A DNA stretch of 64,000 nt from a bacterium (GCA_963643205.1 CAVIJJ010000002.1:1256-65255), one strand, 5' to 3'; positions 16,794-63,723 are shown, numbered from the stretch's first letter. The notes: a model not told the origin generated them from the letters alone. A program made the numbers and translations.

Positions 16794-16870
16794 TGGCGTA
16801 CCCAAAAGGGTTCGAACCTTCGGCCTTCAGAGTCGGAGTCTGACGCTCTATCCAGCTGAGCTATGGGTAC
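16794..16870 (-). tRNA. tRNA-Arg (anticodon CCG)
   Basis: The cloverleaf was folded by hand. The acceptor stem is GTACCCA/TGGGTAC, the D arm GCTC/GAGC and the anticodon stem TCAGA/TCTGA with loop CTCCGAC (CCG). The T arm is GAAGG-TTCGAAC-CCTTT. The CCA end is encoded. Confidence 0.85.
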
Positions 16871-16964: not shown

Positions 16965-17235
16965 GCGCGCCAAGCGGGGAGTTAGCGGTGCCCTGAACCT
17001 GCAATCCGCTATAGCAGGGTGTGATTCCTGCCGTGAGGCAAAGCGACGTAGGGCTGGAATAAGAGCGAAGCGTTGATGGCCGTGTCCTGTGCAATCGAAG
17101 GCCGTGAACCATGTCAGGTCCTGACGGAAGCAGCATTAAGCGGAAAATTCGATGTGCCGCGGGAATGCATGGCCGGAGCTTAGCTTATTGTGTGCCGCCT
17201 ATGGTGCTTTATGTCGAGCGGTGGGTGCGCGCTTT
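16965..17235 (+). ncRNA. ffs: Signal recognition particle RNA, long (Bacillus/Clostridium type with Alu domain)
   Basis: The conserved domain IV reads GUCAGGUCCUGACGGAAGCAGCAUUAAG. The Alu-domain element GUUAGCGGUGCC is present, as are the AUGUGCCGCGGG and GGCCGGAGCUUAGC segments seen in B. subtilis scRNA. The 5' GCGCGCC pairs with the 3' GGUGCGCGC, followed by a T-run. The ends are good to about +/-5 nt. Confidence 0.85.
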
Positions 17236-17313: not shown

Positions 17314-17334
17314 ATCGGCGTAAAAATAAACAGC

Positions 17335-17530
17335 GTGCGATAATACGTCGCGTGAAGGCGCGGCGCGGCGGCAAAACAAGCCGCCGGGGAATCGGATGAG
17401 AATTCCGAACTATCCCAGTAACCGTGATGCGGACGAAAAAGCATTTTCAGTCACTGCCGCGTAGAAAGCGGCGGGAAGGCGCTTGAGTAGGGCGAAGCTA
17501 AGTCGGGAAACCTGTTATGGCATGGTAACT
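17335..17530 (+). promoter_or_regulatory. Cobalamin (AdoCbl) riboswitch aptamer
   Basis: The core reads GGGGAAUCGGAUGAGAAUUCCGAAC. It is followed by CACUGCCGCG...GCGGCGGGAAGG and the B12 box AAGUCGGGAAACCUGUUAUGG. The downstream genes are corrinoid uptake and salvage genes. Confidence 0.8.
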
Positions 17531-17575
17531 TCTGGGGTTGAGTGAAACTGTATTGCATAGGCTTGCTTGTGTTAT

Positions 17576-17617
17576 GGTTGCATCTTTTATTCCGGAAGAT
17601 GCGGCCTTTTTATTTTT
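17576..17617 (+). terminator. Intrinsic terminator, expression platform of the riboswitch
   Basis: GGTTGCATCTT-ttattccgg-AAGATGCGGCC followed by TTTTTATTTTT. Confidence 0.7.
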
Positions 17618-17653
17618 ATAAGAAAAAGAACTTTGAAAGGAGTTTTATAAAAC

Positions 17654-18649
17654 ATGAAGAACATGAAAAAACTGCTTGCCGTTCTGCTTGCGGCTGTGAT
17701 GTGCGTGGCTCTCGTGGCCTGCCAGAGCACAACCGAAACCGAAACGACCGAACCTACCGATGCTCCCGTTGAGACCACCGTTCCCGAGGAAACCGCTGCT
17801 CCCGAAGAGACTGCCGCTCCCGAGGAAACCGGCATAACCGTAACGGACATGATGGGCCGCGAGGTTGCGCTTGACGCTCCCGCGAGCAAAATAGTTGTAC
17901 TCAGCGCGGGCGAGTGCGAAATAATATACGCTCTCGGCGCGGGTGAGCTTGTTGTGGGCCGCGGCGAATACTGCGACTATCCCGCCGAGGTTGCCGACGT
18001 TACTTCCGTAAAGTCCGGCTACGAAACCAACGTTGAGGAAATAGTTGCCCTTGAGCCCGATGTGCTTATAACCAGCGCCATGGACCAGGATCAGGAGATA
18101 ATAGCCAAAATAGAAGAGGCCGGCATAAAGGTAGTTGAGTGCTACGCCCAGGATATAGAGGGCGTTTACACCTCCATATCCCTTATCGGTTCCGTTGTAG
18201 GCCGCGACAGCGAGGCTGAGGCCCTTGTTGCTCAGCTGAAGGAAGGCTTTGAGGAGATCGCCGCCAATAAGGTTGAGGGCGAAAAGACCGTTTATTTCGA
18301 GGTTTCTCCGCTTGAGTGGGGTCTTTGGACCGCCGGCAGCGGCACCTTCATGGACGAGATAGCCACCATGATGGGCCTTACCAACTGCTTCAGCGATGTT
18401 GAAGGCTGGGCCGAAATTTCCCAGGAGCAGGTTATAGAGCGCAACCCCGATTACATTGTTACCATAACCATGTATTACGGCGAGGGCGCAACCCCCGTTG
18501 AGGAGATACTTGGCCGCGAGGGCTGGAGCGACATAACCGCCGTTAAGAACAGCGCTATTCTCAACCTTGCCGATAACGAGCTGAGCCGCCCCGCACCCAG
18601 GCTGCTTGACGGTGCCAAGGCGCTTTACGATTTTGTGAGCGCCAACTGA
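17654..18649 (+). CDS. ABC transporter substrate-binding lipoprotein, BtuF/FhuD-like (corrinoid)
   Basis: The lipobox is LVAC and the linker is PEETAAPEETAAPEETG. The protein looks like a class 8 periplasmic binding protein, and the gene is under the B12 riboswitch. Confidence 0.85.
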   Translation: MKNMKKLLAVLLAAVMCVALVACQSTTETETTEPTDAPVETTVPEETAAPEETAAPEETGITVTDMMGREVALDAPASKIVVLSAGECEIIYALGAGELVVGRGEYCDYPAEVADVTSVKSGYETNVEEIVALEPDVLITSAMDQDQEIIAKIEEAGIKVVECYAQDIEGVYTSISLIGSVVGRDSEAEALVAQLKEGFEEIAANKVEGEKTVYFEVSPLEWGLWTAGSGTFMDEIATMMGLTNCFSDVEGWAEISQEQVIERNPDYIVTITMYYGEGATPVEEILGREGWSDITAVKNSAILNLADNELSRPAPRLLDGAKALYDFVSAN

Positions 18650-18672
18650 TAAAATATCGTTAAACCAGCAAT

Positions 18673-18709
18673 GCTCCCGCGGTACAATCTGCCGCGGGAG
18701 CGCTTTTTA
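18673..18709 (+). terminator. Intra-operon hairpin terminator after the binding-protein gene
   Basis: GCTCCCGCGG-tacaatct-(G)CCGCGGGAGC followed by GCTTTTTA. Confidence 0.6.
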
Positions 18710-18738
18710 TCGGGAATAATATATGGTATAATACGCTT

Positions 18739-19779
18739 ATGAACAGAACACGAGAAGGCTTTAGATTATATGAATACATAATATTTGCGGCGGCAACCGT
18801 GCTTACGCTTATTGTTTGCGTTTGCCTCGGCAGCGTTAACGTGCCGCTTAAAAGCACAATAGAAATCTTTCGCCGCGCTCTTCTTGGCCTTGATATGCCA
18901 AGCGAACTGCCATCATCGATTATTCTTACCGTGCGCCTGCCGCGCGTGCTGTGCGTTGCGCTAACGGGCGCGTCCCTTTCGCTTTGCGGCGCGGCCATGC
19001 AGGGCCTTCTGAAAAACCCGCTTGCGGACGGATCAACCCTCGGCGTGTCCTCCGGTGCCAGCCTTGGCGCGGTAATAGCCATAGCGTGCGGAATAACGTT
19101 CCCGTCGCTGCCGTTCGCGGGCACTATGGTTATGGCCGTTATATTCGCGTTCTTATCCCTTATTATAATTCTGGGCCTTGCTTACAGGCTTGATTTTTCC
19201 CTTTCCACAAACACGATAATACTTATAGGCGTTATATATTCAATGTTCGTGTCCAGCGCCATGAGCGTTATAATAACGTTTGCCTCAAATAAGCTTAAGC
19301 AGATTACGTTCTGGACCATGGGCAGCCTTAACGGCTCTACATACGCCAACGCCGCCGCGATAGCTGTTGCCTTCGTTATATTCGGCGGCATGCTTCTCAT
19401 AAAAGCCCGCGAGCTTAACGCGTTCGCAGTCGGAGAGGATAACGCCAGGAGCATAGGTGTGGACGTTAAAAAAACAAAGCTCAGCGTGCTCATCTGCGTT
19501 TCCGTGCTTATAGGCGTTTGCGTATCCATAGGCGGCACAATAGGCTTTGTGGGCCTTGTTACGCCGCATGCCGCGCGCTTTATAGCGGGGCCGAACCACA
19601 AGCGGCTGCTGAGCGCAAGCGCGTTTTCGGGAGCCATATTCCTTATGCTGTGCGATCTTGTCGCCCGCACGCTGCTAAGCCCCATAGAGCTGCCGATAGG
19701 CGTTGTTACAAGCCTCATAGGCGCGGTGGCATTCATAATAATATTCTATCGCTCAAGGGGGAACGGCGGCCGTGCTTGA
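18739..19779 (+). CDS. FecCD/BtuC-family ABC permease
   Basis: 346 aa polytopic membrane protein with the typical BtuC/FecCD sequence (LTGASLSLCGAAMQGLLKNPLADGSTLGVSSGA). Confidence 0.9.
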   Translation: MNRTREGFRLYEYIIFAAATVLTLIVCVCLGSVNVPLKSTIEIFRRALLGLDMPSELPSSIILTVRLPRVLCVALTGASLSLCGAAMQGLLKNPLADGSTLGVSSGASLGAVIAIACGITFPSLPFAGTMVMAVIFAFLSLIIILGLAYRLDFSLSTNTIILIGVIYSMFVSSAMSVIITFASNKLKQITFWTMGSLNGSTYANAAAIAVAFVIFGGMLLIKARELNAFAVGEDNARSIGVDVKKTKLSVLICVSVLIGVCVSIGGTIGFVGLVTPHAARFIAGPNHKRLLSASAFSGAIFLMLCDLVARTLLSPIELPIGVVTSLIGAVAFIIIFYRSRGNGGRA

Positions 19780-20527
19780 GATAAAGAATCTTTGCGTGCG
19801 CTACGGCGCGCTTGATATAGTTAAAGATGTTTCGTTCGCGGTGCGGGATGGCGAATGGCTTATGATAGCGGGCCCCAACGGCGCCGGCAAATCAACCATA
19901 ATAAACGCCGTAACCGGCGGAGTTCCATACACCGGGGAAATACTGCTGAACGGGCAGGACATAAGAAAAAACAAACCTACGGAGCTTGCGAAAAGCGTGG
20001 GCGTGCTTACGCAGAATCATTATGTTGGGTATTCGTTCAGCGTGGAGGAGGTTGTTCGCCTTGGGCGGTACGCCTACTCTCCGGGCGTGCTCGCCAAGCG
20101 CTGCGAGGATGACGAAAAAATGGTTGAGGACGCGCTTGAAAAAACGGGCATGGCGGCGCAGAGAACTCAATCCGTGCTTACACTTTCCGGCGGAGAGCTG
20201 CAAAGAACGTTCCTTGCGCAGGTGTTCGCGCAGAACCCCAAATATCTGCTGCTTGATGAGCCCACAAACCACCTTGACCTTATATACCAGCGGCAGGTGT
20301 TTTCACTTATAAAGGAATGGCTTAAGCAGGGCGACAGGGCGGTTATAAGCGTTGTGCACGATCTATCGCTCGCCAGAAAATACGGCACCCGCGCGCTTCT
20401 TTTGAACCGCGGCCAAACAGCGGCTATAGACAGCGTAGACAAGGCCCTTAGCAGGGAAATGCTTGAACAGGTATACGGCATGGATGTTTACGCGTATATG
20501 AAGGAGATGCTTTCACAATGGCAATAG
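19772..20527 (+). CDS. ABC transporter ATP-binding protein (BtuD/FepC-like)
   Basis: GTG start overlapping the permease gene. Walker A GPNGAGKST, signature LSGGELQR, Walker B LLLDEPTNHLD. Confidence 0.9.
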   Translation: MLEIKNLCVRYGALDIVKDVSFAVRDGEWLMIAGPNGAGKSTIINAVTGGVPYTGEILLNGQDIRKNKPTELAKSVGVLTQNHYVGYSFSVEEVVRLGRYAYSPGVLAKRCEDDEKMVEDALEKTGMAAQRTQSVLTLSGGELQRTFLAQVFAQNPKYLLLDEPTNHLDLIYQRQVFSLIKEWLKQGDRAVISVVHDLSLARKYGTRALLLNRGQTAAIDSVDKALSREMLEQVYGMDVYAYMKEMLSQWQ

Positions 20528-21600
20528 ATTATAAGCAATACATAAGCGAATTAAATAAAGCGATAAGAAAGCCGGACCCCGCCGCGGCGGCGGAGGCCAA
20601 ACGGCGCTGGGACAGCATAGCCAAACCCCTGAACAGCCTGGGCAAGCTTGAAGAGATTATTATAAAGGTTGCGGCGCTTACGGGCAGCGCGGACGTGGAC
20701 ATATCAAAGCGGTGCGTAACAATGTTTTGCTCCGATAACGGAGTGGTTGAGGAAGGCGTTACCCAAACTGGAAGCGACGTTACGGCTAAGGTGGCCGAAA
20801 GCGCGGCTAAGGGCAGAAGCTCCGTTTGCACAATGGCTAAGGTTATAGGCGCGGATGTGTTCCCGATAGATGTTGGCATGCTGACTAGGGTTGACGGCGT
20901 ACGCGACAGGCACGTGGCCAACGGCACAAAGAACTTTACAAAATGCCCCGCGATGACGCATGAGGAAGCCGTGCAGGCCATAAAAGCCGGCATAGATACG
21001 GTTAAAGAGCTGAAGGACAAAGGATATTCGCTTATCGTCACAGGCGAAATGGGAATAGGAAACACAACCACGTCCTCCGCCGTGGCGGTCGCGCTTACGG
21101 GTATGGATATAGAGGACGCTGTCGGCCGCGGCGCGGGACTTAGCGACGCGGGACTCATACGAAAGAAAAACGCGATAGAGCGCGGCATCAAGCTGAATAA
21201 TCCCGATAAAGAGGACGCGCTCGATACTCTTTCTAAGCTTGGCGGCTTTGATATGGCGGCCATGGCGGGCGCCTTCATAGGTGGGGCCATATACGGCGTG
21301 CCCGTGATTATAGATGGGTTCATAAGCAGCGTTGCGGCGCTTATAGCCCAAAGGATTTGCCCGCAAAGCACAATTGCGATGCTTGCCAGCCATTCATCAT
21401 CCGAACCCGCGGCTAAGCGCATGATGAGGGAGCTTTCGCTTGAACCCGTAATTTACGCGGATATGCACCTTGGCGAGGGCACGGGCGGCGTTTGCCTTAT
21501 ACCGCTTATGGACATGGCGCTTAACGTATACAATACGAACAACACGTTTTCGGATATAAACGTCGCCGCATACACTCCTCAAGGGGGAGAGAAAAAGTGA
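20518..21600 (+). CDS. cobT: Nicotinate-nucleotide--dimethylbenzimidazole phosphoribosyltransferase
   Basis: 360 aa with the GEMGIGNTT motif. The sequence is typical of CobT, and the gene overlaps the ATPase gene. Confidence 0.9.
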   Translation: MAIDYKQYISELNKAIRKPDPAAAAEAKRRWDSIAKPLNSLGKLEEIIIKVAALTGSADVDISKRCVTMFCSDNGVVEEGVTQTGSDVTAKVAESAAKGRSSVCTMAKVIGADVFPIDVGMLTRVDGVRDRHVANGTKNFTKCPAMTHEEAVQAIKAGIDTVKELKDKGYSLIVTGEMGIGNTTTSSAVAVALTGMDIEDAVGRGAGLSDAGLIRKKNAIERGIKLNNPDKEDALDTLSKLGGFDMAAMAGAFIGGAIYGVPVIIDGFISSVAALIAQRICPQSTIAMLASHSSSEPAAKRMMRELSLEPVIYADMHLGEGTGGVCLIPLMDMALNVYNTNNTFSDINVAAYTPQGGEKK

Positions 21601-22121
21601 TAACGCTTATGACGGGCGGTTCCGCCTGCGGTAAAAGCTCTTATGCCGAAAGCCTGGCGGTGCGGCTGAGTACCCCGCGCTACTATCTTGCCGCCATGCA
21701 GCCGTTTGGCGAGGGCGGCGCGCAGAAGGTTGAAAAGCACAGGCGCATGCGTGCGGGCAAGGGCTTTGAAACAATAGAAAGATACCGCGATTACGCTTCG
21801 CTTGATTTTGCCGAAAAAGGCGGCACGGCATTGCTTGAATGTATATGCAACCTTACCGCGAACGAAATGTTTTCCGACGACGGCACGATGAGCGACCCAT
21901 ACGAGAAGGTTATAAGCGGGGTTAAGCACATAGCCGGGCAATGTGATAATCTTATTATAATAACAAACGACGTGGGCAGCGATACAGGCGGCTACGGCGA
22001 GGGAACAATGCGCTATGTTCGCGCGCTCGGGCGGATAAACATAGCCCTTGCGGAGATGGCGGATAATGTGTATGAGCTTGTGGCGGGGATACCTATAGTG
22101 CTGAAGGGAGAGCTTTTATGA
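21597..22121 (+). CDS. cobU: Adenosylcobinamide kinase / adenosylcobinamide-phosphate guanylyltransferase
   Basis: P-loop TGGSACGKSS, a His-containing segment VEKHRRMR and a C-terminal AGIPIVLKG. GTG start overlapping the cobT stop. Confidence 0.85.
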   Translation: MITLMTGGSACGKSSYAESLAVRLSTPRYYLAAMQPFGEGGAQKVEKHRRMRAGKGFETIERYRDYASLDFAEKGGTALLECICNLTANEMFSDDGTMSDPYEKVISGVKHIAGQCDNLIIITNDVGSDTGGYGEGTMRYVRALGRINIALAEMADNVYELVAGIPIVLKGELL

Positions 22122-22888
22122 ACGCGCTTAGATCAATAGCAATGGCGTTTTTAATGTTTTCAAGAATTCCCATGCCGCGCGTGGAGTGGAAAAAAGAAAA
22201 TATGCGCTATATGCTCGCGGCGCTTCCGCTTGTGGGCGCGGTTATAGGGGCGGCGCTTTTTATATGGGTGTGGATATGCTTAAAGCTTAAAATAGGTCAA
22301 ATTCTTTTCGCGGCGGGCTTTACGCTTATACCTCTCGCCGTTTCGGGCGGAATACACATGGATGGCTTTTGTGACACGGCGGACGCTTTAAGCAGCCACC
22401 AAACCCCTGAACGCAAAAAGGAAATACTTAAGGATTCCCACGCGGGAGCTTTTGCCGTAATAAGCTTCGGTATGTATCTTATTAGCTATTTCGCGCTTTC
22501 AAACGAGCTTGAGGCGGCGTATAAAACGGCGCTTTATATGGGCATTGTGCATATCGCAAGCCGCGCTGTGGGCGCGCTTATAAGCACGCTTACCGTAAGC
22601 GCGCACGAGGGGCTTTTAAGCTCGTTCACGTCGGCCGGGTCTAAGGCCGCGGTGTGGATTCTTTTGATTGTGTTTATATTATGCGCGGCCGCGCTTATAT
22701 GCATTTCGCCCATTGTCGGCGCGGTTATGGCACTTGCGGCGATTGTAGCGTTTTTCGCGTTAAGGCGCATGGCGATAAAGCAATTCGGCGGCATGAGCGG
22801 CGATATAGCGGGATTCAGCATACAGATGTGTGAGCTTATAATGCTCGCGGCGTTTGTTTTTTGTTCAAAGGCGGTAAATTTATTATGA
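22118..22888 (+). CDS. cobS: Adenosylcobinamide-GDP ribazoletransferase (cobalamin synthase)
   Basis: Polytopic membrane protein with a CobS-type GGIHMDGFCDTADA motif. Confidence 0.9.
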   Translation: MNALRSIAMAFLMFSRIPMPRVEWKKENMRYMLAALPLVGAVIGAALFIWVWICLKLKIGQILFAAGFTLIPLAVSGGIHMDGFCDTADALSSHQTPERKKEILKDSHAGAFAVISFGMYLISYFALSNELEAAYKTALYMGIVHIASRAVGALISTLTVSAHEGLLSSFTSAGSKAAVWILLIVFILCAAALICISPIVGAVMALAAIVAFFALRRMAIKQFGGMSGDIAGFSIQMCELIMLAAFVFCSKAVNLL

Positions 22889-23235
22889 TATTGATAATAG
22901 GCGCGGAAGCAAGCGGAAAAAGAGAATTCGCCAAAGGCCTGGGCTACGGCGAAAATGACTTCACTACCGATCCGTTTTCCGAAAAAAGGGTTGTTTACGG
23001 AATTCAGGATATACTCTTTGAGGATAATACCAGAACGGAAGAAATATACAACGCCGTAAAAAACAAGGATGTTGTTATATGCAACGAGGTTGGCAGCGGC
23101 GTAATACCCGTTGAGCACAGCGTGCGCCTCGGGCGGGAAGCCGCCGGGCGGCTTTGCGTGCTGCTCGCGAAGGATGCCACTGCCGTGGTGCGCATGGTTT
23201 GCGGAATACCAACGGTGATAAAGGGGAAAATATGA
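22885..23235 (+). CDS. Truncated CobU-like P-loop protein (mini-CobU, 116 aa)
   Basis: MILIIGAEASGKREF aligns to the CobU P-loop. VVICNEVGSGVIPV...GRLCVLLAKDATAVVRMVCGIPTVIKG aligns to the CobU C-terminus. The central His-bearing segment is missing. ATG 22885 overlaps the cobS stop (ATGA). Confidence 0.55.
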   Translation: MILIIGAEASGKREFAKGLGYGENDFTTDPFSEKRVVYGIQDILFEDNTRTEEIYNAVKNKDVVICNEVGSGVIPVEHSVRLGREAAGRLCVLLAKDATAVVRMVCGIPTVIKGKI

Positions 23236-23834
23236 GAATATATTTAATAAGGCACGCGCAAACGGAAGGAAACGCCCTTAAAAGATACATAGGCGTTACG
23301 GATTCCCCGTTAAGTAGGGACGGCATAGCAATGGCGCGGGCCGCCGGCGGGGACAGCGGGCTTAAAAGCGTTATAGTAACCCCGCTTTCAAGAACTCAGC
23401 ATACCGCAAGAATACTTTTCCCAAACGCGGAGCAGCGCATAGAGAGCGGCATAACCGAAATGGACTTTGGCGACTTTGAAAACCGGAGCGCGGACGATAT
23501 GGTAAACGATGCCGACTACCGCGCCTGGGTTGACGGAAATTGCCTTGGCCGCTGCCCAAACGGGGAAAGCATAGCGGAATTCAGCGAAAGGGTTACAAAG
23601 GCTTTCTGGCAGTGCGTGCGCCGGGCCGAGAATGAAGGGGAAGAAAGGCTTGTTTTCGTTGTGCACGGCGGGGTTATAATGGCCCTTATGAGCGTACTGG
23701 GCAGGCCTAAAAAGAGCTTTTACGATTGGTATTTGCCAAACTGCGCCTGCGTGCAGGCGGATACCGCCAAGGACGCAAAAACCGGCGAAGAATATTTGGA
23801 CAACGTTATAATAAAGGAGAATGTGTCGCTTTGA
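23232..23834 (+). CDS. cobC: Histidine-phosphatase family protein, probable alpha-ribazole phosphatase
   Basis: Starts MRIYLIRHAQTEGN (RHG-type motif) and has a later VVHGG. It sits in the cob context, with an ATGA overlap to the upstream gene. Confidence 0.75.
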   Translation: MRIYLIRHAQTEGNALKRYIGVTDSPLSRDGIAMARAAGGDSGLKSVIVTPLSRTQHTARILFPNAEQRIESGITEMDFGDFENRSADDMVNDADYRAWVDGNCLGRCPNGESIAEFSERVTKAFWQCVRRAENEGEERLVFVVHGGVIMALMSVLGRPKKSFYDWYLPNCACVQADTAKDAKTGEEYLDNVIIKENVSL

Positions 23835-48769: not shown

Positions 48770-48787
48770 AAAAGATAATAAAGTTTT

Positions 48788-49157
48788 GAGTAAGCCATGC
48801 GGTCGCGTGCGGAATCCAATGGATCATCCGCATGAGGAAAGTCCGGGCTCCGCAGGGCAGGGTGCCGGATAACGTCCGGCGGGGGCGACCCCAGGGATAG
48901 TGCAACAGAGATATACCGCCGCTTTAAGCGGTAAGGATGGAAAGGCGAGGTAAGAGCTCACCGGCGGGGCGGGTAACCGTTTCGTCCTGTAAACCCCACC
49001 CGGTGCAAGATTGGAATGGGAGCGCGTGCGCTTTTGCGCAGAAATGGCTGCCCGTCATGCTCCTGATAATCGCGCGAGTGCGGCGGCAACGCCGTGCCAA
49101 GATAGATGGCCGCACGCCGGTTTTACCGGCCGACAGAACCCGGCTTATTGCTTGCTC
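48788..49157 (+). ncRNA. rnpB: RNase P RNA, class A
   Basis: The P4 halves are GAGGAAAGUCCGGGCUCC and ACAGAACCCGGCUUA. GGGCAGGGUGCCGGAUAACGUCCGG is class-A-like. P1 pairs GAGUAAGC with GCUUGCUC. ORF-track entries inside the RNA are spurious. Confidence 0.85.
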
Positions 49158-49169
49158 ATATTTATTTAC

Positions 49170-57093: not shown

Positions 57094-58494
57094 TTATCTG
57101 TAATTCTTAAAGAATTCGCCGTATGCGCGGCTGGTCATGTACACGTCCGCCTTGGATACTATTTCCCAGGGAGCGTGCATGCTCTGCATCGCAACGCCCG
57201 CGTCCAGCACATCCATATCGTAGTTGGCCATTATGTAGGCTATGGTTCCGCCGCCGCCCTGGTCAACCTTGCCAAGCTCGCTGGTCTGGTAAACCACGCC
57301 GTGCTCGTTGAAAAGCTTGCGAACCTTGCCCACAAGCTCGGCGGAGGCGTCGTTAGCGCCGCTCTTGCCGCGGGAGCCGGTGTATTTAACAATGGCTATG
57401 CCCTGGCCGAGATTGGCAAAGTTAGCGTCGTCACCAACGCTGGGATAGTTGGGGTCAAACGCCGCCGCAACGTCCGCGCTCAGCATGGTGCTGTGAGCAA
57501 GGGCGCGCCTTATTGAAAGATCGGAGCAGTTTCCGCCGTTCATAAGGGCTATCATCTCGCCGACCATATTGTTGAAAAAGCTTGAGCACATGCCGGATGC
57601 GCCAACGCTGCCGATTTCTTCCTTATCAACATAAAGGCCAACGGTGGTGCGCTCGGGGTTCTCAACCTTAAGCAGGGCCGCAAGGGAAGCGTATGAGCAA
57701 ACGCGGTCATCATGGCCGTGCGCCACTATAAGGCCGCGGTCAAAACCAACATCGCGCGCGGAACCGGCGGGAACGGCCTCAAGCTCGGCGGAAACAAAGT
57801 CCTCCTCCGTAATGCCGTAGCGCTCGTTGAGCACGCCAAGCAGGGCCTTCTTGAACCTGTCCGAAGCCTCGGTATCGTCAAGCGGCAGGCTGCCTATAAG
57901 TATGTTCAGGTTTTCGCCCTCAATGCCTTCGCTAAGCGTCTTGGTTACCTGGTCCTTGGCAAGGTGCGGCAGCAGGTCCGAAATATAGAATACGGGGTCT
58001 CCGCACTTGTCACCAACGGCAATCTCAACCTTTTCGCCGTTCGCCTTCACTATCACTCCGTAAAGGGCAAGGGGCAGAGCCACCCAGTGATATTTCTTTA
58101 TTCCGCCGTAGTAATGCGTTTTAAGCAGCGTTGTTCCGCCGGCCTCGTAAACGGGATTCTGCTTTATGTCAAGGCGCGGGGAATCCATGTGGCTGCCCAC
58201 TATGTTCATGCCGTTTTCAAGGGACTCTTTACCTATAACGGCAAGCATAACGGCCTTGCCGCGGTTGTTGTAATAAACCTTGTCGCCGGCCTTAAGCTCC
58301 TTCTTTTCGCATACGCATACAAATCCGGCTTCCTTGGCGCGGCGGATTATTTCCGCGGCGCAGCGGCGCTCGGTCTTGCTTTCGTTAAGAAACGCCTTAT
58401 AGTCCTCGCCCATATCCATGCAGGCCTTGCGCTCATCGGCGCTCAGCTTGTCCCAAACATAAGCGCGCTTGTATGTAAGATCCTTGGTTTCCAT
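57094..58494 (-). CDS. M18 family aminopeptidase
   Basis: 466 aa with VGSHMDSPRLDIK, HGHDDR and EEIGS motifs typical of M18 aminopeptidases. Confidence 0.85.
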   Translation of the reverse strand: METKDLTYKRAYVWDKLSADERKACMDMGEDYKAFLNESKTERRCAAEIIRRAKEAGFVCVCEKKELKAGDKVYYNNRGKAVMLAVIGKESLENGMNIVGSHMDSPRLDIKQNPVYEAGGTTLLKTHYYGGIKKYHWVALPLALYGVIVKANGEKVEIAVGDKCGDPVFYISDLLPHLAKDQVTKTLSEGIEGENLNILIGSLPLDDTEASDRFKKALLGVLNERYGITEEDFVSAELEAVPAGSARDVGFDRGLIVAHGHDDRVCSYASLAALLKVENPERTTVGLYVDKEEIGSVGASGMCSSFFNNMVGEMIALMNGGNCSDLSIRRALAHSTMLSADVAAAFDPNYPSVGDDANFANLGQGIAIVKYTGSRGKSGANDASAELVGKVRKLFNEHGVVYQTSELGKVDQGGGGTIAYIMANYDMDVLDAGVAMQSMHAPWEIVSKADVYMTSRAYGEFFKNYR

Positions 58495-58690
58495 AAGCTC
58501 TCCTTTATAAAAATAAATATTATAATGTAAGCATACAACCTTGCCGCTTTTGCGTCAAGAGCGCGCGGCAAAGATATAATATATACAGGATATATGTAAG
58601 TGGGGGTTGTGTTATTGGTCTGCTTGATGTAAAATAAGCGATTGAAAGCGGAGCTTTTCCGCAGAAAAGATCATATATACCAAATAATCC

Positions 58691-58820
58691 GCTTGGGCTG
58701 ATACCCAAGGACGGAATGGGGTGAGATTCCCCGCGAGTCGGTCACTGTGAAGCCTGCCGGGACAGGATAAGTCAGATACGTTTAAGGATTGCTAAGGTTC
58801 CTGCCGTCACCGGGAAGCTG
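58691..58820 (+). promoter_or_regulatory. Cobalamin-riboswitch-like aptamer (divergent 3' half)
   Basis: 58709-58754 reads GGACGGAAUGGGGUGAGAUUCCCCGCGAGUCGGUCACUGUGAAGCC, which matches the conserved core. A B12-box-like AAGUCAGAUAC (58769-58779) and CCUGCCGUC (58800-58808) are split by about 20 nt. GACGG pairs with CCGUC. Not verified with a covariance model. Confidence 0.55.
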
Positions 58821-58854
58821 TTTTGTTTTTTGAGTAAATAGTTAAAAACAAATT

Positions 58855-58885
58855 GGACCCGCACGGCATGTGCGGGTCTTTTTTA
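58855..58885 (+). terminator. Intrinsic terminator (probable expression platform) upstream of the yezD-like ORF
   Basis: GACCCGCA-cggcat-TGCGGGTC followed by TTTTTT. Confidence 0.75.
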
Positions 58886-58919
58886 ATTCGCAAAGCATAA
58901 GGAAGGAGACACGAAGAAT

Positions 58920-59099
58920 ATGGAAAACAGCCGGATGGGGAGCGAGTACTGCGAACAGAGCATATTTGGCGATATAAGTTCGCAGGATTACCAGGTATTA
59001 AAGCTGATGCGGGAGATGGATTACGGCCATCTGGTAATTACGGTGAAGGGCGGCCAGCCTGTTCACGCAGAGGTTCAGAAGAGCGTTCTGATAAAATAG
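58920..59099 (+). CDS. YezD/DUF2292-like small protein (59 aa)
   Basis: Own translation: MENSRMGSEYCEQSIFGDISSQDYQVLKLMREMDYGHLVITVKGGQPVHAEVQKSVLIK. The RBS is GGAAGGAGA. The pattern L..M..M.YG.L.I.V..G..V..E..K matches DUF2292. It is below the ORF-track size cutoff. Confidence 0.6.
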   Translation: MENSRMGSEYCEQSIFGDISSQDYQVLKLMREMDYGHLVITVKGGQPVHAEVQKSVLIK

Positions 59100-59155
59100 T
59101 ACCCAAAATAAAAATAATATAAGCGGCTGTGAGGCCGGACCTACGGAAGAACCGA

Positions 59156-59216
59156 AGTCCAACAGAATTCGCATGCGGCGTGAAATGCCCGTGTGAATCT
59201 TGTTGGACTTTTTTAT
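59156..59216 (+). terminator. Long hairpin plus T-run between yezD-like ORF and the giant gene (terminator/attenuator)
   Basis: AGTCCAACA ... TGTTGGACT encloses a structured ~36-nt insert and is followed by TTTTTT. It lies 50 nt upstream of ATG 59266. Confidence 0.6.
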
Positions 59217-59265
59217 TCTGCCGGCCTTGCGGAGCGAATATCGTAAAAGGAGGAAAACTACGATA

Positions 59266-62200
59266 ATGAACAAAAAAACGATTTCCCTGCTGCTTGCGCT
59301 GCTGATGCTTTTAAGCATTTTGCCGGCATCCGTGCTTGCGGCAACCAAAACATTTGATGACTTTTTCAGCGGACTTCCGCTTATTGCGGAAACCGAGCCC
59401 GGATCATCAACAAGCACCAAAAAGTGGAAGGTGACCACGCTTAGCGGCGAAGATGTTTTGATGAGCGGCAACAAGGGGAAAAGCAGCAGCTCAAGCACGC
59501 TGCAGCTTACCATGACCGCCGATACTCAGCTGAGCTTTGATTATAAAGTCTCATCAGAGACAAGATATGATAAGCTGACCATTAAAAACGGCGATAATAC
59601 GCTTGTAAACGGCGTAAGCGGCGAAATTGACTGGACAACCCTTGCGATTGACGCTAAGAGCGGCGATGTTATAACGATTGTTTATAAAAAGGATTCAAGC
59701 GGCGACAAAAATGATGACTGCGTATATGTGCGCAACTTCAGCGCAGGCGAACCGACTGTAATAACCCTGCATGCCAATAACGGAACCGATGAAACCGCTA
59801 CTCAGAATATATACGGCGGGAAGGGAGCCCTTAAGGCAAATACGTTTACCTGTGAGGGCAAGGTATTCGCGGGCTGGGCAACCGAGGCTAACGGCAGCGT
59901 TGCCTATGCCGACTGCGCCGCGGTAGAAACCGAAACCGCGATGGACCTTTATGCCGTATGGAGCGACGCGTATACCGTAACGCTTGACTACGCGGACGGA
60001 AAGACCGCTGAAAAGCAGATATTGGTTGCGCAGAACGCGGCGTTCGGCAGCGCGAATATGCCTGCCAATCCTACTAAAAAAGGATATCTGTTCGCGGGCT
60101 GGTTTGATGGCGAAGCTCAGCTTACGGCCGAAACCGTTATAAGCGGCAGCACAACCTATACCGCCAAGTGGACCGCAATAAAATATACCATAGCCTTCAG
60201 CGCAAATGAGGGCACAGGCACTATGGTCAGCATTAGCGCTACCTATGATCAGGAGGCGGAACTGCCGGAAAATACATTCACCCGCGCGGGTTATGACTTT
60301 GCCGGTTGGAGCACGTACAGCGGCGGTTCTTCCGTATCCTATACCGACAAGGCAACCGTAAAGAACCTTACCGATACCGATTCCAAAACCGTTACGCTCT
60401 ATGCTGTCTGGCATGGTCGTGCCGTTAATGTTACCGTCAATCCCAACTACGAGGGCGCTGAGATAACCGGCCGCGTGGGTCTGGTTGGCAGCAATTATAA
60501 TTACATAAGGCAGGATAACGGCGGCTCAACGTATTCTCCCATTTCGGATCCCTCCCGTACTGGCTATATATTCAATGGCTGGTACACTGCGGCCGAGGGC
60601 GGCAGCGTGATTACTTATTCCTATAAATTCACCGCGCAGGATGCTGAAAACGGCGTTACCATGTACGCGCAGTGGACCAAGGGCATAACCGTTCACTTTG
60701 ACGGCAACGGATATAAATCCACTATTGCCGATAAAACCGTTACCGTGGACAAGGTTTATTCAAGCCTGCCTTCCTATCTTTCCAAATCATATATGCCCGA
60801 CGGAAAGGCACTTGACGGTTGGTATATAAAGAATGAAGACGGTTCATTCGGCGAGGCCGTTACAAAGGATACCGATTTCAGCACCAAAGGTGACGAGGTA
60901 ACTCTTATCGCCAAGTGGCGCGACTATCAATACATAATCAAGTACAACTTAAAGTATTCCGATAAATCCTCGGTTACCGGAACAATGGCGGATCAGGCGG
61001 CGTTCTTCGGCGTTGATACCGTGCTTAATAAGTGTGCGTACACTCGCCCGGGCTATGCGTTCGCCGGCTGGTCAACTAGTAGCTACGGTACAACCGTTAC
61101 CTATACGGATGGCGCTACCATAAACCGTGCGTTTGAAGAAGGCGATTATTGGGACGATGGCAGCGAGGACGGCGAAGCGTTCAATCTTTATGCCGTATGG
61201 ACCGAGGCTAAGAGCGAAGAGGAAAAGGCAGCCGATACCAAGCTTGCCGCGGCGGAGACCGCTATAAGCGGCACATATTTGCCCACCTATGGCAAGGACA
61301 CAAATGCCCTTACAATGATTCAGGCTAAGCTGAGCGCTGCAAATATTACCGACGTTACCGTTACCGTAAAGGCAGACGATTCCGCTAACTACTCAAGCTA
61401 TAACTATGTTGGCGTTGCCAATGACGGCACTATTAAGTATAAGTGGAACGAAAGCGGCACCACCAGCAGCAGCACGGGCTATGTGCGCCCCAAGTTCGTA
61501 CTTACCTATAAGGTAGGCGAAAATACCTACACCAAGGAAACCACATCCTGCAACTTCGGCATGGGCCTTGATGAGGGAAAGGCTATTGCCGCGCTGAACG
61601 CCGTTGCGGACAGAATAACCATACCCGAAACCATAGAAAAGGCAGAAGACCTTACTTCCTTGCCGCATTACCCCTTAAAGGCCGGCGTGGATTCGAGCAC
61701 GGTTGATTACAATTATTCCACCAATCTCGAGCTTTGGGCTGAAGGCACCTGGCAGAGCAGCGTTACCAATATAGGCATAACGGCTGACGAAACCGCTTTC
61801 TTCTCTCCCTATAAGGCAACGGTTACCATGCCCGCGAGCGATACCGCCGCCGCGCTTACTCTTAAGCTGACATACAGCGGCAGAGATGATTTGTACATAA
61901 CGCGGGTTTATAACACAACCCTCAAGGGAACCGTAGAAGAAAAGGAAATCGATTACCAAGCGCTGCTTAATACTATGCTGGGCAAGGCGGACGCTCTTAC
62001 CGATCCTACCGACAAGAGTAATATCGATAAATCTGCCGTAACGAGCGATATCCAGTTCTTTACCACAAAGGACCTGAACCGTCTCTGCCAGGAACTTTAC
62101 AACAAGAACTTTGACGGCAAGTATACTCCCATAACAATCACCAGCAGCAACGAGAACGTTATAAGCTCAACTGATATTTATAACGCCGCCCGCGTGCAGA

Positions 62201-63723
62201 CCTATCGCCCGCTGCCCGGCAAGAATGCCGAAGAGGTAACACTTACCGTAAAGATTCTTAATCGTCCTACCGGCGAGGGCGTAGCAACCGAGGTTCTTGC
62301 CACTGCCGATATAAAGCTTACCGTGACTCCGCTTGTGCAGAGCGATATAGATGCCGCCGCGGCATTCATGAAGAAAGTCTGCACCGAGAGCGTTTATTGG
62401 GAAGGCATAAAGAAGGCAAACACAGCCAAGGACAATGTTACCGGCGATATGTGGAGCTTTATAGAGGTTGTCCCCGACGGAACAGGCTATAAGTTCATTC
62501 GCAACGCGGATAACGTAACCGGAACCGGCATCAAGGTGGATAACATTGACGGCTGGTATGAAAGTCAGTCATATCGCTGCTTCCGCACCACCAATACAAA
62601 CGTGGTTAAGAACGAGAACCTGCTTGTAACTCAGCCCACCTACAATACCGAAGTAACCATAGACAGCGTGCTTTCCTATAATGAGTACGCCAAGTACTAT
62701 GAAAAGTTCAAGGACAGCGCCGATTATGCTCAGTTCGCGCAGTTCTATAAGCAGCCCGTCAGCGTAACGGTAAAGGTAATAGGTACCGCGGGAACCGACG
62801 ATCCGAGTATTAAGGATATAAACGTTACACTGAAGGTGGATGGCAAAGCTATAGAAGGCAATTTCGCGGATATTGAAAAATATAGCTACACCTGCAAGAG
62901 CAACGCCAATAAAACCGCATGGGATGTGATAGTAAAGGCTCTTACCGACAATGGCTATGCCTACACCGGAACCTCGAACTACCTTACTTCCATAACCTCT
63001 CCCGATAGCGTAACGCTTGCTGGCGGCGATGAGAACTACGGCTCATGGTCCGGTTGGATGTTTACCGTAAACGATTCCGCGCCGATGCTTGACAGCACGA
63101 ATTATGCGACGCTTGGCCAGTACACGGTGAAGGATGGCGATGTGATAAGGCTTTATTATGTGGCTTGCCCCACCGAAACCCGCAACCACGTTGCCGGTAC
63201 CGAGGATCCCACAAAGTGCGGCATGTGCGGAGACAAGCTTAAAACCGTAGAGCCTACGCCTACAGTAGCGCCCACCGTAGCGCCTACGCAGCAGCCTACT
63301 CCTGCGCCGACTGTAGCGCCCACCGTAGCACCGACCGTGGCACCCACTGTAGAGCCTACTCCGACCGTAGCACCGACCGTAGCGCCGACTGTGGCACCCA
63401 CTGTGGCACCCACCGTAGCACCCACTGTAGAGCCTACTCCGACAGTAGCACCGACCGTAGCGCCCACCGTGGCACCCACTGTGGCACCCACTGTGGCACC
63501 CACCGTAGCACCGACCGTAGTGCCAACCGTAGCACCCACTGTGGCACCCACGCAGCGGCCTACTCCGACAGTAGCGCCTACCACTCGCCCCGTAATAGTA
63601 GCTCCTGAGAATCCCCTGCCCCCGCAGACAGGTGACTCAAGTGCCGTTTATATAGCGGGCGCGGCAGTTTGCGTACTTGCCGCCGCGGCGTTTGTCGTGA
63701 TAGCGAAGCGCAAGCGTGGCTGA
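59266..63723 (+). CDS. 1485-aa cell-wall-anchored surface protein: signal peptide, beta-sandwich-like N-domain, 6 Listeria-Bacteroides repeats, unassigned region, DUF4430 domain, (PTVA)n stalk, LPPQTG sorting signal
   Basis: AAAGGAGG RBS. The signal peptide is MNKKTISLLLALLMLLSILPASVLA. The domain evidence is listed in the sub-features below. The ORF-track start 59200 was rejected. Confidence 0.85.
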   Translation: MNKKTISLLLALLMLLSILPASVLAATKTFDDFFSGLPLIAETEPGSSTSTKKWKVTTLSGEDVLMSGNKGKSSSSSTLQLTMTADTQLSFDYKVSSETRYDKLTIKNGDNTLVNGVSGEIDWTTLAIDAKSGDVITIVYKKDSSGDKNDDCVYVRNFSAGEPTVITLHANNGTDETATQNIYGGKGALKANTFTCEGKVFAGWATEANGSVAYADCAAVETETAMDLYAVWSDAYTVTLDYADGKTAEKQILVAQNAAFGSANMPANPTKKGYLFAGWFDGEAQLTAETVISGSTTYTAKWTAIKYTIAFSANEGTGTMVSISATYDQEAELPENTFTRAGYDFAGWSTYSGGSSVSYTDKATVKNLTDTDSKTVTLYAVWHGRAVNVTVNPNYEGAEITGRVGLVGSNYNYIRQDNGGSTYSPISDPSRTGYIFNGWYTAAEGGSVITYSYKFTAQDAENGVTMYAQWTKGITVHFDGNGYKSTIADKTVTVDKVYSSLPSYLSKSYMPDGKALDGWYIKNEDGSFGEAVTKDTDFSTKGDEVTLIAKWRDYQYIIKYNLKYSDKSSVTGTMADQAAFFGVDTVLNKCAYTRPGYAFAGWSTSSYGTTVTYTDGATINRAFEEGDYWDDGSEDGEAFNLYAVWTEAKSEEEKAADTKLAAAETAISGTYLPTYGKDTNALTMIQAKLSAANITDVTVTVKADDSANYSSYNYVGVANDGTIKYKWNESGTTSSSTGYVRPKFVLTYKVGENTYTKETTSCNFGMGLDEGKAIAALNAVADRITIPETIEKAEDLTSLPHYPLKAGVDSSTVDYNYSTNLELWAEGTWQSSVTNIGITADETAFFSPYKATVTMPASDTAAALTLKLTYSGRDDLYITRVYNTTLKGTVEEKEIDYQALLNTMLGKADALTDPTDKSNIDKSAVTSDIQFFTTKDLNRLCQELYNKNFDGKYTPITITSSNENVISSTDIYNAARVQTYRPLPGKNAEEVTLTVKILNRPTGEGVATEVLATADIKLTVTPLVQSDIDAAAAFMKKVCTESVYWEGIKKANTAKDNVTGDMWSFIEVVPDGTGYKFIRNADNVTGTGIKVDNIDGWYESQSYRCFRTTNTNVVKNENLLVTQPTYNTEVTIDSVLSYNEYAKYYEKFKDSADYAQFAQFYKQPVSVTVKVIGTAGTDDPSIKDINVTLKVDGKAIEGNFADIEKYSYTCKSNANKTAWDVIVKALTDNGYAYTGTSNYLTSITSPDSVTLAGGDENYGSWSGWMFTVNDSAPMLDSTNYATLGQYTVKDGDVIRLYYVACPTETRNHVAGTEDPTKCGMCGDKLKTVEPTPTVAPTVAPTQQPTPAPTVAPTVAPTVAPTVEPTPTVAPTVAPTVAPTVAPTVAPTVEPTPTVAPTVAPTVAPTVAPTVAPTVAPTVVPTVAPTVAPTQRPTPTVAPTTRPVIVAPENPLPPQTGDSSAVYIAGAAVCVLAAAAFVVIAKRKRG
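59755..61200 (+). other. Six Listeria-Bacteroides (Flg_new-type) repeat modules
   Basis: Each module ends in a G(Y/K)xFxGW...(T/D)LYA(V/K/Q)W pattern. Examples are GYLFAGWFDG...TYTAKW, GYDFAGWSTY...LYAVW, GYIFNGWYTA...MYAQW and GYAFAGWSTS...LYAVW. Confidence 0.8.
62755..63165 (+). other. DUF4430 (transcobalamin-like C-terminal) domain
   Basis: VSVTVKVIG...TAWDVIVKALTDNGYAYTG...YLTSI...NYGSWSGWMFTVNDSAPML...LGQYTVKDGDVIRLYY reproduces the DUF4430 hallmark SGWMY.VNG......Y.LKDGD.I.W.Y. Confidence 0.75.
63247..63590 (+). repeat. In-frame tandem 12-nt repeat encoding a (P-T-V-A)n / VEPTPTVAPT stalk
   Basis: Units of ccc acc gta gca with synonymous variation, roughly 25-30 in number (not counted exactly). 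A higher-order VEPTPT(VAPT)n unit is seen three times. Confidence 0.9.
63616..63720 (+). other. Cell-wall sorting signal LPPQTG + hydrophobic helix + KRKRG
   Basis: LPPQTGDSSAVYIAGAAVCVLAAAAFVVIAKRKRG. Confidence 0.85.

Follow-up and report, generated by a model that had tools for sequence, protein, structure and literature searches.

The stretch of bacterial DNA considered here (GCA_963643205.1, CAVIJJ010000002.1:1256-65255; 64,000 nucleotides (nt), one strand read 5' to 3', hereafter the window) carries towards its far end a locus whose elements follow one another on the + strand: a structured leader, a terminator, a 59-codon open reading frame (ORF) resembling YezD, a 165-nt spacer and a 1485-codon ORF for a large, predicted surface protein (Table 1). 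Judged by conservation, covariation and the genes that it precedes across related genomes, the leader is a cobalamin-type riboswitch, and the last globular domain of the large protein is, by Pfam and predicted fold, a transcobalamin-beta-like DUF4430 domain. On balance, we consider it probable that the locus encodes a corrinoid receptor, anchored in the wall and repressed by B12, from which corrinoids pass to the BtuFCD transporter, the presumed genes for which lie elsewhere in the window.

Table 1. Features of the locus and of its presumed partner operon; positions are counted from the first nucleotide of the window.
Feature	Position	Strand	Basis or remark
Presumed partner operon	17328-23834	+	standard cobalamin riboswitch, then btuF-btuC-btuD-cobT-cobU-cobS-cobC
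Candidate promoter, TTGCGT, 19-nt spacer, TATAAT	58550-58555 and 58575-58580	+	weak, by eye only
Structured leader	58686-58832	+	first element of the locus
Predicted aptamer, compact cobalamin-riboswitch variant	58686-58790	+	RF00174 alignment, model R1, covariation, conservation before orthologues
P1, AAUCC/GGAUU	58686-90 / 58786-90	+	
P2 hairpin	58692-58709	+	
P3, ACG/CGU	58711-13 / 58779-81	+	
P4, GGGG/CCCC	58718-32	+	
L5, GUCGG	58737-41	+	
Short P6 hairpin	58752-58768	+	
B12-box equivalent, AAGUCAGAUAC	58769-79	+	
P13 hairpin, UUCCUG-CCGUCAC-CGGGAA	58798-58816, U-rich tract to 58832	+	terminator-like site
Strong leader terminator, GGACCCGCAC-GGCAU-GUGCGGGUC + U6	58855-58885	+	11 pairs, 7 of them G-C
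YezD-like (DUF2292-related) gene, 59 aa	58920-59099	+	own Shine-Dalgarno sequence AGGAAGGAGA, 58900-58909
RNA2 conserved element	59125-59160	+	no Rfam match; conserved copies
RNA2 first hairpin, GGC-UGUGAG-GCC	59125-36	+	
RNA2 outer stem, GGAC/GUCC	59137-40 / 59157-60	+	
RNA2 inner hairpin, CGG-AAGAA-CCG	59144-54	+	
Long terminator, AGUCCAACAGAAUUC...GAAUCUUGUUGGACU + U6	59156-59215	+	between the YezD-like and large genes
Gene for the 1485-aa surface protein	59266-63723	+	ATG 59266, stop 63721-63723, Shine-Dalgarno sequence AAAGGAGG 59246-59253
Signal peptide, MNKKTISLLLALLMLLSILPASVLA	59266-59340	+	read from the translation; likely cleavage after VLA
About six Listeria-Bacteroides (Flg_new) repeats	59830-61185	+	PF09479 6.4e-38, 6 stretches; TIGR02543 1.2e-19
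Transcobalamin-beta-like DUF4430 / SLBB domain (predicted)	62809-63171	+	aa about 1182-1302; PF14478 match aa 1220-1299
Pro/Thr/Val/Ala stalk, 124 aa, (PTVA)n with EPTPTVA punctuation	63244-63615	+	Pfam PT repeat 8.3e-10
Sorting signal, L-PPQTG, hydrophobic segment, KRKRG tail	63616-63720	+	TIGR01167

Assigning the leader to the cobalamin riboswitches from database models alone comes with difficulties. A first-pass annotation, made from the sequence alone, had named it as such, and the bases on which it relied are in place: positions 58709-58754 read GGACGGAATGGGGTGAGATTCCCCGCGAGTCGGTCACTGTGAAGCC, with AAGTCAGATAC at 58769-58779 and CCTGCCGTC at 58800-58808. A significant match to the Rfam family RF00174, which that annotation had proposed as a check, was not obtained. 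In a permissive scan of 58640-58835 (196 nt) the family aligned over 58679-58796 at 16.2 bits (E=0.024; gathering threshold 31.5 bits), the gathering scan of the whole window left the leader without an RF00174 match, and RF01482 gave 18.6 bits at a cut-off of 50; extended to 35 related loci, the Rfam gathering scan returned nothing at the variant positions. All core elements nonetheless find a place in the sub-threshold alignment (GGAA junction, P4/L4, CACUGU strand, B12-box region, closing P3/P1 helices), with the P6 extension shrunk from 62 to 11 nt (51 of 62 nt deleted) and a B12 box that diverges from the consensus AGCCAGGAGAC. Core positions in GGAA-P4/L4 (GGUG..A..CC) and the CACUGU strand vary little or not at all across 119 relatives. 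The B12 box had earlier been extended to CCUGCCGUC, a mislabelling, as these bases are the loop and 5' arm of the separate P13 hairpin, whose own loop presumably forms the kissing contact with L5 and which may itself act as a ligand-stabilised terminator. The strong intrinsic terminator described 3' of the leader is present, and orthologous loci have equivalent terminators 3' of the aptamer. A possible antiterminator pairing between L13 (UGCCGU) and ACGGCA of the leader terminator, noticed by eye, spans the terminator loop only and is not relied on.

As Rfam membership could not serve as a test, a covariance model (R1) was built from 49 relatives, the window excluded. R1 scores 111.2 bits (E=4e-30) on 58708-58825 and only 12.3 bits on the standard riboswitch at 17.3 kb, a combination of high score here and failure with RF00174 which marks the leader as one of a coherent subclass, related to RF00174 and invisible to it at threshold. 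Base pairing was measured with alignment-free anchors in 126 instances and compared with 1000 shuffles. The three P3 positions are paired in 96/87/79% of instances (shuffle maxima 82/76/56%), with C-G, U-A, A-U, G-C and G-U pairs all present; the first position of P4 is paired in 89% (maximum 65%) and those of P6 in 98/89% (maxima 62/60%). Pairs in P3, P4 and P6 use three to five pair types each and lie above all 1000 shuffles, and the potential for a P1 helix of at least 6 bp is found in 98%, against 67% in mismatched controls. The L5 and L13 loops associate, albeit without a fixed register, GUCGG occurring with CCGGAAC or CCGAAAC, GUGGG with CCNNCAC and GAAGG with CCAUUYC; between N2 and position 6 the pair is U:A in 73 cases and A:U in 4. 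Such co-change is the pattern that a cobalamin-type kissing-loop expression platform would predict. Upstream of the orthologous large gene, a 70-nt core is 78-88% identical at six loci (numbered here L001, L002, L003, L005, L006 and L010) at which the flanks diverge.

The same data bear on whether the leader might be what is left of a cobalamin riboswitch that has decayed and lost its function. A remnant, too, could fall below the Rfam threshold, and the folding energy of the leader (z=-1.67) is uninformative on its own; it would hardly be expected to score 111 bits with a model of its 49 relatives, to share a core with 27 invariant positions in the family, or to belong to a set of 126 instances with covarying helices. 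Covariation and the 111-bit score together effectively refute this explanation. The first-pass assignment of the leader therefore stands on conservation, covariation and regulon, and not on its Rfam score.

Some details of the subclass deserve separate mention. The second pair of P6 (in the window, 58751-58769) is a conserved G-A mismatch in 90/126 instances and G-C or A-U in the others, and a U-G at the base of P4 (58717-58733) becomes C-A, an isosteric wobble, in 11/126; this suggests tertiary contacts. Two weak R1 matches, at 14586-14664 (+) of the window (15.1 bits, E=0.02) and at 3505-3625 (+) of L008 (17.4 bits, E=0.004), some 430 nt 5' of the orthologous large gene, may be either chance or diverged switches.

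A search for exact matches to the pattern GGTCACTGTGA, 8-38 nt, AGTCAGATAC, in one genome per species, placed the variant core at no fewer than 120 loci (at least), mostly titled Oscillospiraceae, Clostridia or Clostridiales; among the matches listed there were also a few Coriobacteriia and one Cloacibacillus. For a Pfam census of the genes behind it, the downstream product was taken to be the longest ORF starting at most 900 nt 3' of each instance, which gave 87 products of up to 620 amino acids (aa) and 31 larger ones, the window's own protein included. Counted among the matches listed, the smaller products held DUF4430 (8), CbiD (5), corrin methylases (5), SLH (5), BtuF-type proteins (4), CbiK (3), CobT (2), HemC (2), CbiX (2) and BtuC (1), and the larger ones DUF4430 (14), Flg_new (11), SLH (9), GLUG (5), CbiK (3), DUF4465 (3) and dockerin (2); on the same footing DUF4430, in 22/118 products, is the commonest Pfam family behind the subclass. 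cbiQ is also found among genes behind variant switches, and DUF4465 is the B12-binding domain of BtuJ1/J2 of Bacteroides (PMC13398666). From these gene contexts, the subclass is one that controls a cobalamin regulon, with unusual weight on very large surface proteins, and the expectation that riboswitch and DUF4430 surface protein would be linked in gene neighbourhoods is borne out at many loci. For a corrinoid as the ligand this regulon is the best argument available, and it gives no indication of which corrinoid.

It may be, then, that the variant senses a corrinoid form other than that of standard switches, such as cobinamide, an incomplete corrinoid or a cobamide with another lower ligand, and so reports corrinoid quality and not the level of adenosylcobalamin (AdoCbl). 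The whole P6 extension is missing, AAGUCAGAUAC replaces the B12-box consensus, the model of each class hardly recognises the other (16.2 bits for the variant with RF00174, 12.3 for the standard switch with R1), a variant and a standard switch stand in tandem before btuC at L046, and class II switches without the extension are said in a review to differ in selectivity. Since the regulon is nevertheless an ordinary B12 regulon, and since there are known cases of tandem switches with a single ligand, we hold this to be a reasonable yet doubtful proposition.

Tandem arrangements occur in two forms: at L046 (3684-4058, - strand) the variant switch comes first and a standard RF00174 switch second, and at L144 (232-520) two variant cores lie in series before a YezD-like gene. 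Either could provide different ligand selectivity or a sharper response. At L030 (2796-7110) two variant riboswitches share one locus, the first followed by a YezD-like gene and a 704-aa DUF4430/cadherin-like protein with a C-terminus like a sorting signal, the second by a CbiQ-like component of an energy-coupling factor (ECF) system, an echo of the CbiO/CbiQ link noted for transcobalamin-like proteins in 2007 (PMC1796856). At L165 (3316-5173) polysaccharide-synthesis genes (epimerases), and not a gene for a DUF4430 protein, lie behind a hairpin-terminator that is itself preceded by a YezD-like gene and a variant riboswitch of 77.8 bits; these genes may or may not share the transcript.

Turning to the product of the large gene, secretion, a Pro/Thr stalk and a sortase-type signal had all been ascribed to it, and all three find support: in a signal peptide recognised by eye, in the PT-repeat match, and in TIGR01167 (LPXTG_anchor), which scores 19.4 bits at a cut-off of 15.9. 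The protein begins MNKK...VLA and ends in LPPQTG, 23 mostly hydrophobic residues and KRKRG. Pfam Gram_pos_anchor did not reach its cut-off (13.2 bits, with 20 needed); the motif is PPQTG and not the canonical LPXTG, and presumably represents the clostridial (S/P)PXTG sortase motif. A search with PF09479, suggested earlier, does find Flg_new repeats (Table 1). No family could be assigned to the N-terminal domain between signal peptide and repeats, and a stretch of about 550 aa before DUF4430 has no Pfam matches. The stalk is composed mainly of proline (34), threonine (32), valine (26) and alanine (21). Its length varies between strains of the same species (L158-L160), in which the protein has 1485, 1497 or 1575 aa; as the versions with longer stalks hold assembly gaps (runs of X), their true lengths are uncertain. 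Between DUF4430 and stalk, at 63166-63237, lies a short Cys-containing linker (CPTETRNHVAGTEDPTKCGMCGDK). The longer linker of homologues contains C..C and C-x2-C pairs, and the segment may form a small module held together by metal or disulfides.

Orthologues end in a variety of ways: L001 in dockerin repeats, L005, L006, L010, L050, L085 and L115 in SLH domains, and L030, L096, L135 and L137 in a hydrophobic segment with a basic tail, sorting-signal-like by eye, in which a motif search found no LPXTG-type motif. As the anchor is swapped and the DUF4430 body kept, the conserved trait is surface display and not the mode of attachment.

The view that DUF4430 forms the last globular domain was upheld. 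PF14478 matches at 28.1 bits (cut-off 23.8), homologues P0001-P0006 carry the same family, and an AlphaFold2 (AF2) model of aa 1113-1310 has a mean confidence (pLDDT) of 81.5, with values above 90 across the domain. The top 16 Foldseek matches in the Protein Data Bank (PDB) are all transcobalamin, haptocorrin or intrinsic factor, together with the bacterial DUF4430 structure 3u7z; 5np4, the isolated human transcobalamin beta domain with cyanocobalamin, aligns at a target-normalised TM score of 0.70, 23% identity and E=1.2e-4. A PDB sequence search with a profile of the DUF4430 region returned nothing useful. The isolated beta domain has been crystallised with cyanocobalamin (CNCbl) and with cobinamide (Cbi) (PMC5599065), so a lone beta-type domain can hold a corrinoid, and from the modelled fold we infer that the DUF4430 domain binds corrinoids.

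This idea has a history. Burroughs, Balaji, Iyer and Aravind defined the transcobalamin-like clade of SLBB domains in 2007, describing members with signal peptides and Gram-positive anchors, a gene link to CbiO/CbiQ and a link to B12 auxotrophy, and proposed that they scavenge B12 or its precursors (PMC1796856). The central idea of wall-anchored B12 capture is, as a consequence, already a known prediction. Literature searches found no experimental study of B12 binding by a bacterial DUF4430 protein, no characterised wall-anchored B12 receptor, and no experimental work on DUF4430 or DUF2292/YezD in bacteria. The novelty claimed at first pass for a sortase-anchored B12 receptor is therefore good as regards characterised proteins, and not as regards the prediction. 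What does appear new, as far as can be told, is the existence of a riboswitch subclass below the reach of Rfam, the strong preference of that subclass for giant surface proteins, and a possible checkpoint formed by the YezD-like protein and the RNA2 element, to which we now turn.

The description of the 59-aa ORF as YezD/DUF2292-like is not supported at the Pfam cut-off (PF10055, 15.1 bits, E=0.017, cut-off 22), and NCBIfam gave no match for it; it is supported by homology, as a profile of seven locus-encoded relatives gathered 152 proteins, many of them with PF10055 and some named 'DUF2292 domain-containing protein'. An AF2 model consists of a helix and a beta-hairpin (pLDDT > 90 for aa 21-54), for which Foldseek found no match at E < 3, the fold being too small to place, and a PDB sequence search with the protein gave nothing useful. 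At three loci an RF00174 riboswitch that does pass the threshold precedes the YezD-like gene (L163, 3148-3394, 51.5 bits; L166, 3213-3368, 68.5 bits; L142, 1103-1302, 37.4 bits), and at L163 it is followed by YezD, RNA2 and a 2311-aa Big_2/DUF4430/SLH protein. Membership of the B12 regulon consequently extends to the YezD-like gene and RNA2, whatever the variant binds. A public assembly collection indexes one relative's YezD-like protein in 4123 blocks; a large gene lies downstream in 6/6 places examined, its product, where searched, being a Flg_new/DUF4430/SLH protein of about 1900-2040 aa, and the leader there shows the same four-part order as the window.

Neither RNA2 nor the stable hairpin between the two genes figured in the first-pass annotation. 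RNA2 has the consensus GGCUGUGAGGCC-GGRC-N-CGGAAGAACCG-N-GYCC, and a pattern scan found it at 18 loci, making 19 distinct copies with those recognised earlier. The element is present in the window and at L001, L005, L010, L027, L080, L111, L138-L150, L152 and L163. Among 17 aligned copies of the 19 it is nearly invariant, with no change in either hairpin; in the outer stem the third pair alternates without exception between A-U (12 copies) and G-C (5), which is consistent with a conserved structure, if thinly so because only one pair covaries. A YezD-like ORF ends just 5' of RNA2 in 13/14 newly found loci, at a spacing of 8 to 24 nt where coordinates were compared, and in general RNA2 follows such an ORF by 8-25 nt almost without exception; L080 has RNA2 without a YezD ORF, and the low-GC loci L023, L164 and L165, together with L030, have a simpler version in which a hairpin with an A-rich loop abuts the terminator. 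About 20 loci have riboswitch, YezD, RNA2 and large surface protein in this order. Ribosome-coupled attenuation at RNA2 was considered and set aside, as the distance from stop codon to RNA2 varies (about 9-25 nt).

The long terminator stem opens with the four bases of the GUCC strand of RNA2, an arrangement which on its sequence resembles that of an antiterminator. It follows from the presence of a second RNA element and a terminator before the large gene that control is more than the simple read-out of a single riboswitch. A tentative proposal, for which we would claim possibility and little beyond it, is that YezD-like/DUF2292 proteins form a family, not recognised before, of very small RNA-binding antiterminators that stabilise the GGAC/GUCC stem of RNA2 against the terminator.

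One may ask instead whether the riboswitch governs the YezD-like gene only, the transcript ending at 59156-59215 and the large gene being separate and independent of B12. The inter-gene hairpin is certainly strong: 59097-59270 folds with a minimum free energy of -67.1 kcal/mol (z=-7.29; 0/200 shuffles as stable), its hairpin and U-run occupying 59123-59215, and a 50-nt gap with a good Shine-Dalgarno sequence separates it from the large gene. At L003, L002 and L006, however, the variant riboswitch stands directly before the large gene with no YezD ORF between them; a conserved element, in which the one stem pair that varies does so by covariation, overlaps the terminator's 5' arm, as is typical of conditional termination; an admittedly insensitive scan found no sigma-70-like promoter between the genes; and the four-part order recurs as described. 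Independent control of the large gene accordingly seems to us quite improbable.

The supposed beneficiary of the receptor, a BtuFCD-CobTUSC operon behind a standard riboswitch, had also been reported in the window, and was recovered in full: RF00174 matches nowhere but at 17328-17533, with 73.4 bits, in the whole-window gathering scan, and Pfam finds Peripla_BP_2, FecCD, ABC_tran, DBI_PRT, CobU, CobS and His_Phos_1 in its genes. The G+C content of the window is 51.6%. Upstream of the leader, the opposite strand bears genes for an M18 aminopeptidase and a glycosyltransferase; a consensus scan of the + strand at 58400-59400 with 16-18 nt spacers, an insensitive method, found no promoter. The large protein recurs at 99.6% identity, at the same locus, in metagenome-assembled genomes (MAGs) at NCBI (GCA_963643155.1 and others), and the nearest named relative for the large gene is a Christensenellaceae MAG, others being Oscillospiraceae or unclassified Clostridia. 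Elsewhere in the window are a tRNA (16797-16870, - strand), a signal recognition particle (SRP) RNA (16965-17232) and a class A RNase P RNA (48787-49162).

Taken together, these parts suggest how a wall-anchored corrinoid receptor could work as a four-part module. First would come the compact riboswitch, with its class-I-like core, its predicted L5-L13 platform and no P6 extension: a corrinoid bound to the aptamer would steady the L5-L13 contact and so favour termination at 58832 and/or 58885, the direction of control being presumably OFF. When corrinoids are low the switch would stay open and the 59-aa YezD-like protein would be made, after which RNA2 and the long terminator would compete for the four shared bases, and transcription would continue or stop. 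Read-through at 59215 would require RNA2 to be stabilised, most plausibly by the YezD-like protein, so that riboswitch and protein would form a two-stage gate on a costly surface-protein gene. The 1485-aa product would then be exported and joined through PPQTG to peptidoglycan by sortase, where the 124-residue stalk, with repeat and Ig-like modules adding about 1100 residues, could lift the DUF4430 domain to, or past, the wall surface. There it would bind cobalamin, cobinamide or other corrinoids and hand them to the lipoprotein BtuF, for import by BtuCD and remodelling by CobTUSC (genes at 17.6-23.8 kb).

It is fair to set out what weighs against this proposal. The leader falls short of the RF00174 gathering threshold and none of the 26/26 related loci scanned has RF00174 at the motif position, so the ligand of the variant is something we infer; a difference in selectivity is one way to read the variant/standard tandem at L046; the variant core is absent from orthologues L007 and L008, which makes the link between riboswitch and large gene frequent and not universal; a very strong terminator stands between riboswitch and large gene; the PF14478 score is modest; and the organism is known from MAGs alone. 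No alpha/alpha toroid, which in transcobalamin is half of the binding site, was detected in the window protein (the relative L144 has a weak prenyltransferase-toroid match beside its DUF4430), 3u7z is labelled only as a putative metal-binding protein, and in a preprint on L. sakei haem was docked into transcobalamin-like proteins, a DUF4430-type one being modelled with it. The last three points would equally suit a protein with another ligand (haem, a different tetrapyrrole, a metal or a glycan), or one that is mainly an adhesin or part of the wall architecture and whose SLBB domain is incidental. The Flg_new repeats and the central 550 aa, most of the protein, have no known ligand, and a reviewer of the 2007 paper had cautioned that the ligands of the clade were possibly diverse (PMC1796856). 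Such readings must contend with the frequency of DUF4430 behind the subclass (the 22/118 products among the matches listed), beside cbi/cob/btu genes and the proven B12-binding DUF4465, with the presence of the same module behind a threshold-passing RF00174 at L163, and with the ability of the transcobalamin beta domain alone to bind CNCbl and Cbi (PMC5599065); we consider them unlikely.

Should the proposal of a wall-anchored corrinoid receptor be correct, its implications would reach beyond this locus. Competition for corrinoids by Gram-positive gut bacteria is poorly understood, the characterised capture proteins (BtuG, BtuH, BtuJ) all being from Bacteroides, and the locus and its relatives offer concrete candidates in Oscillospiraceae and Christensenellaceae. 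A common riboswitch subclass that is invisible at the Rfam threshold would mean that the B12 regulons of Clostridia are under-called, the uncharacterised DUF2292 family and a new RNA element would join the B12 regulon, and the question of whether the B12 carriers of animals are of bacterial origin, as has been proposed, would also be concerned.

Comparison with known systems places the locus among several familiar arrangements without its coinciding with any of them. With the riboswitches of RF00174 (CL00101) the leader shares the J3/4-P4-L4 core GGAAU-GGGGUGAGAUUCCCC, the CACUGUGA strand, a B12-box-like AAGUCAGAUAC, the closing P3/P1 helices, the predicted L5-L13 platform and cbi/cob/btu targets; it differs in that the P6 extension is reduced in the subclass to a hairpin of 5-15 bp, in its divergent B12 box and in the preference of the subclass for giant surface proteins. 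Leaders under protein-dependent antitermination, such as the RAT sites of BglG/LicT and the two-hairpin sites of ANTAR proteins, likewise combine a small conserved structure, whose 3' strand opens a terminator stem, with a small candidate regulator encoded nearby. The loops of RNA2 (UGUGAG, AAGAA) are off their consensus, with no sequence or Rfam match to them, and the 59-aa DUF2292-like protein, unlike their regulators, has no known RNA-binding fold.

For the receptor itself the nearest parallel in logic is the Isd relay of Staphylococcus aureus, in which sortase-anchored NEAT proteins, repressed at plenty under the control of Fur, pass haem to IsdE/IsdF. A wall receptor, a scarce tetrapyrrole and the membrane lipoprotein of a FecCD-type ABC importer would be common to both; in the window a riboswitch takes the place of Fur and one large protein that of a receptor series, the Pfam scan finds no NEAT domain, and transfer would be by analogy. 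With the transcobalamin-like clade the protein shares Pfam membership, a predicted beta-grasp fold, secretion and a Gram-positive anchor as described for its members (PMC1796856), and it departs from transcobalamin in having no detected alpha/alpha toroid, in its identity of about 23% and in carrying the domain inside a 1485-aa stalked, multidomain protein. BtuG, BtuH and BtuJ1/J2 of Bacteroides, the nearest systems in function, are riboswitch-regulated surface accessories ahead of a transporter (PMC6143338, PMC8941943, PMC13398666), as is predicted here, and a further link to BtuJ lies in the DUF4465 of three large proteins behind the subclass, among the matches listed. The likeness to the window protein is functional only, as the Pfam scan finds in it no BtuG propeller, BtuH C-terminal domain or DUF4465: the Bacteroides proteins have unrelated folds (beta-propeller, jelly-roll) and are outer-membrane lipoproteins that feed the TonB-dependent BtuB, whereas the window protein, anchored to peptidoglycan, would feed the lipoprotein BtuF. 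If this is true, Gram-positive bacteria would have, in transcobalamin-like domains raised on wall-anchored stalks, their own answer to BtuG.

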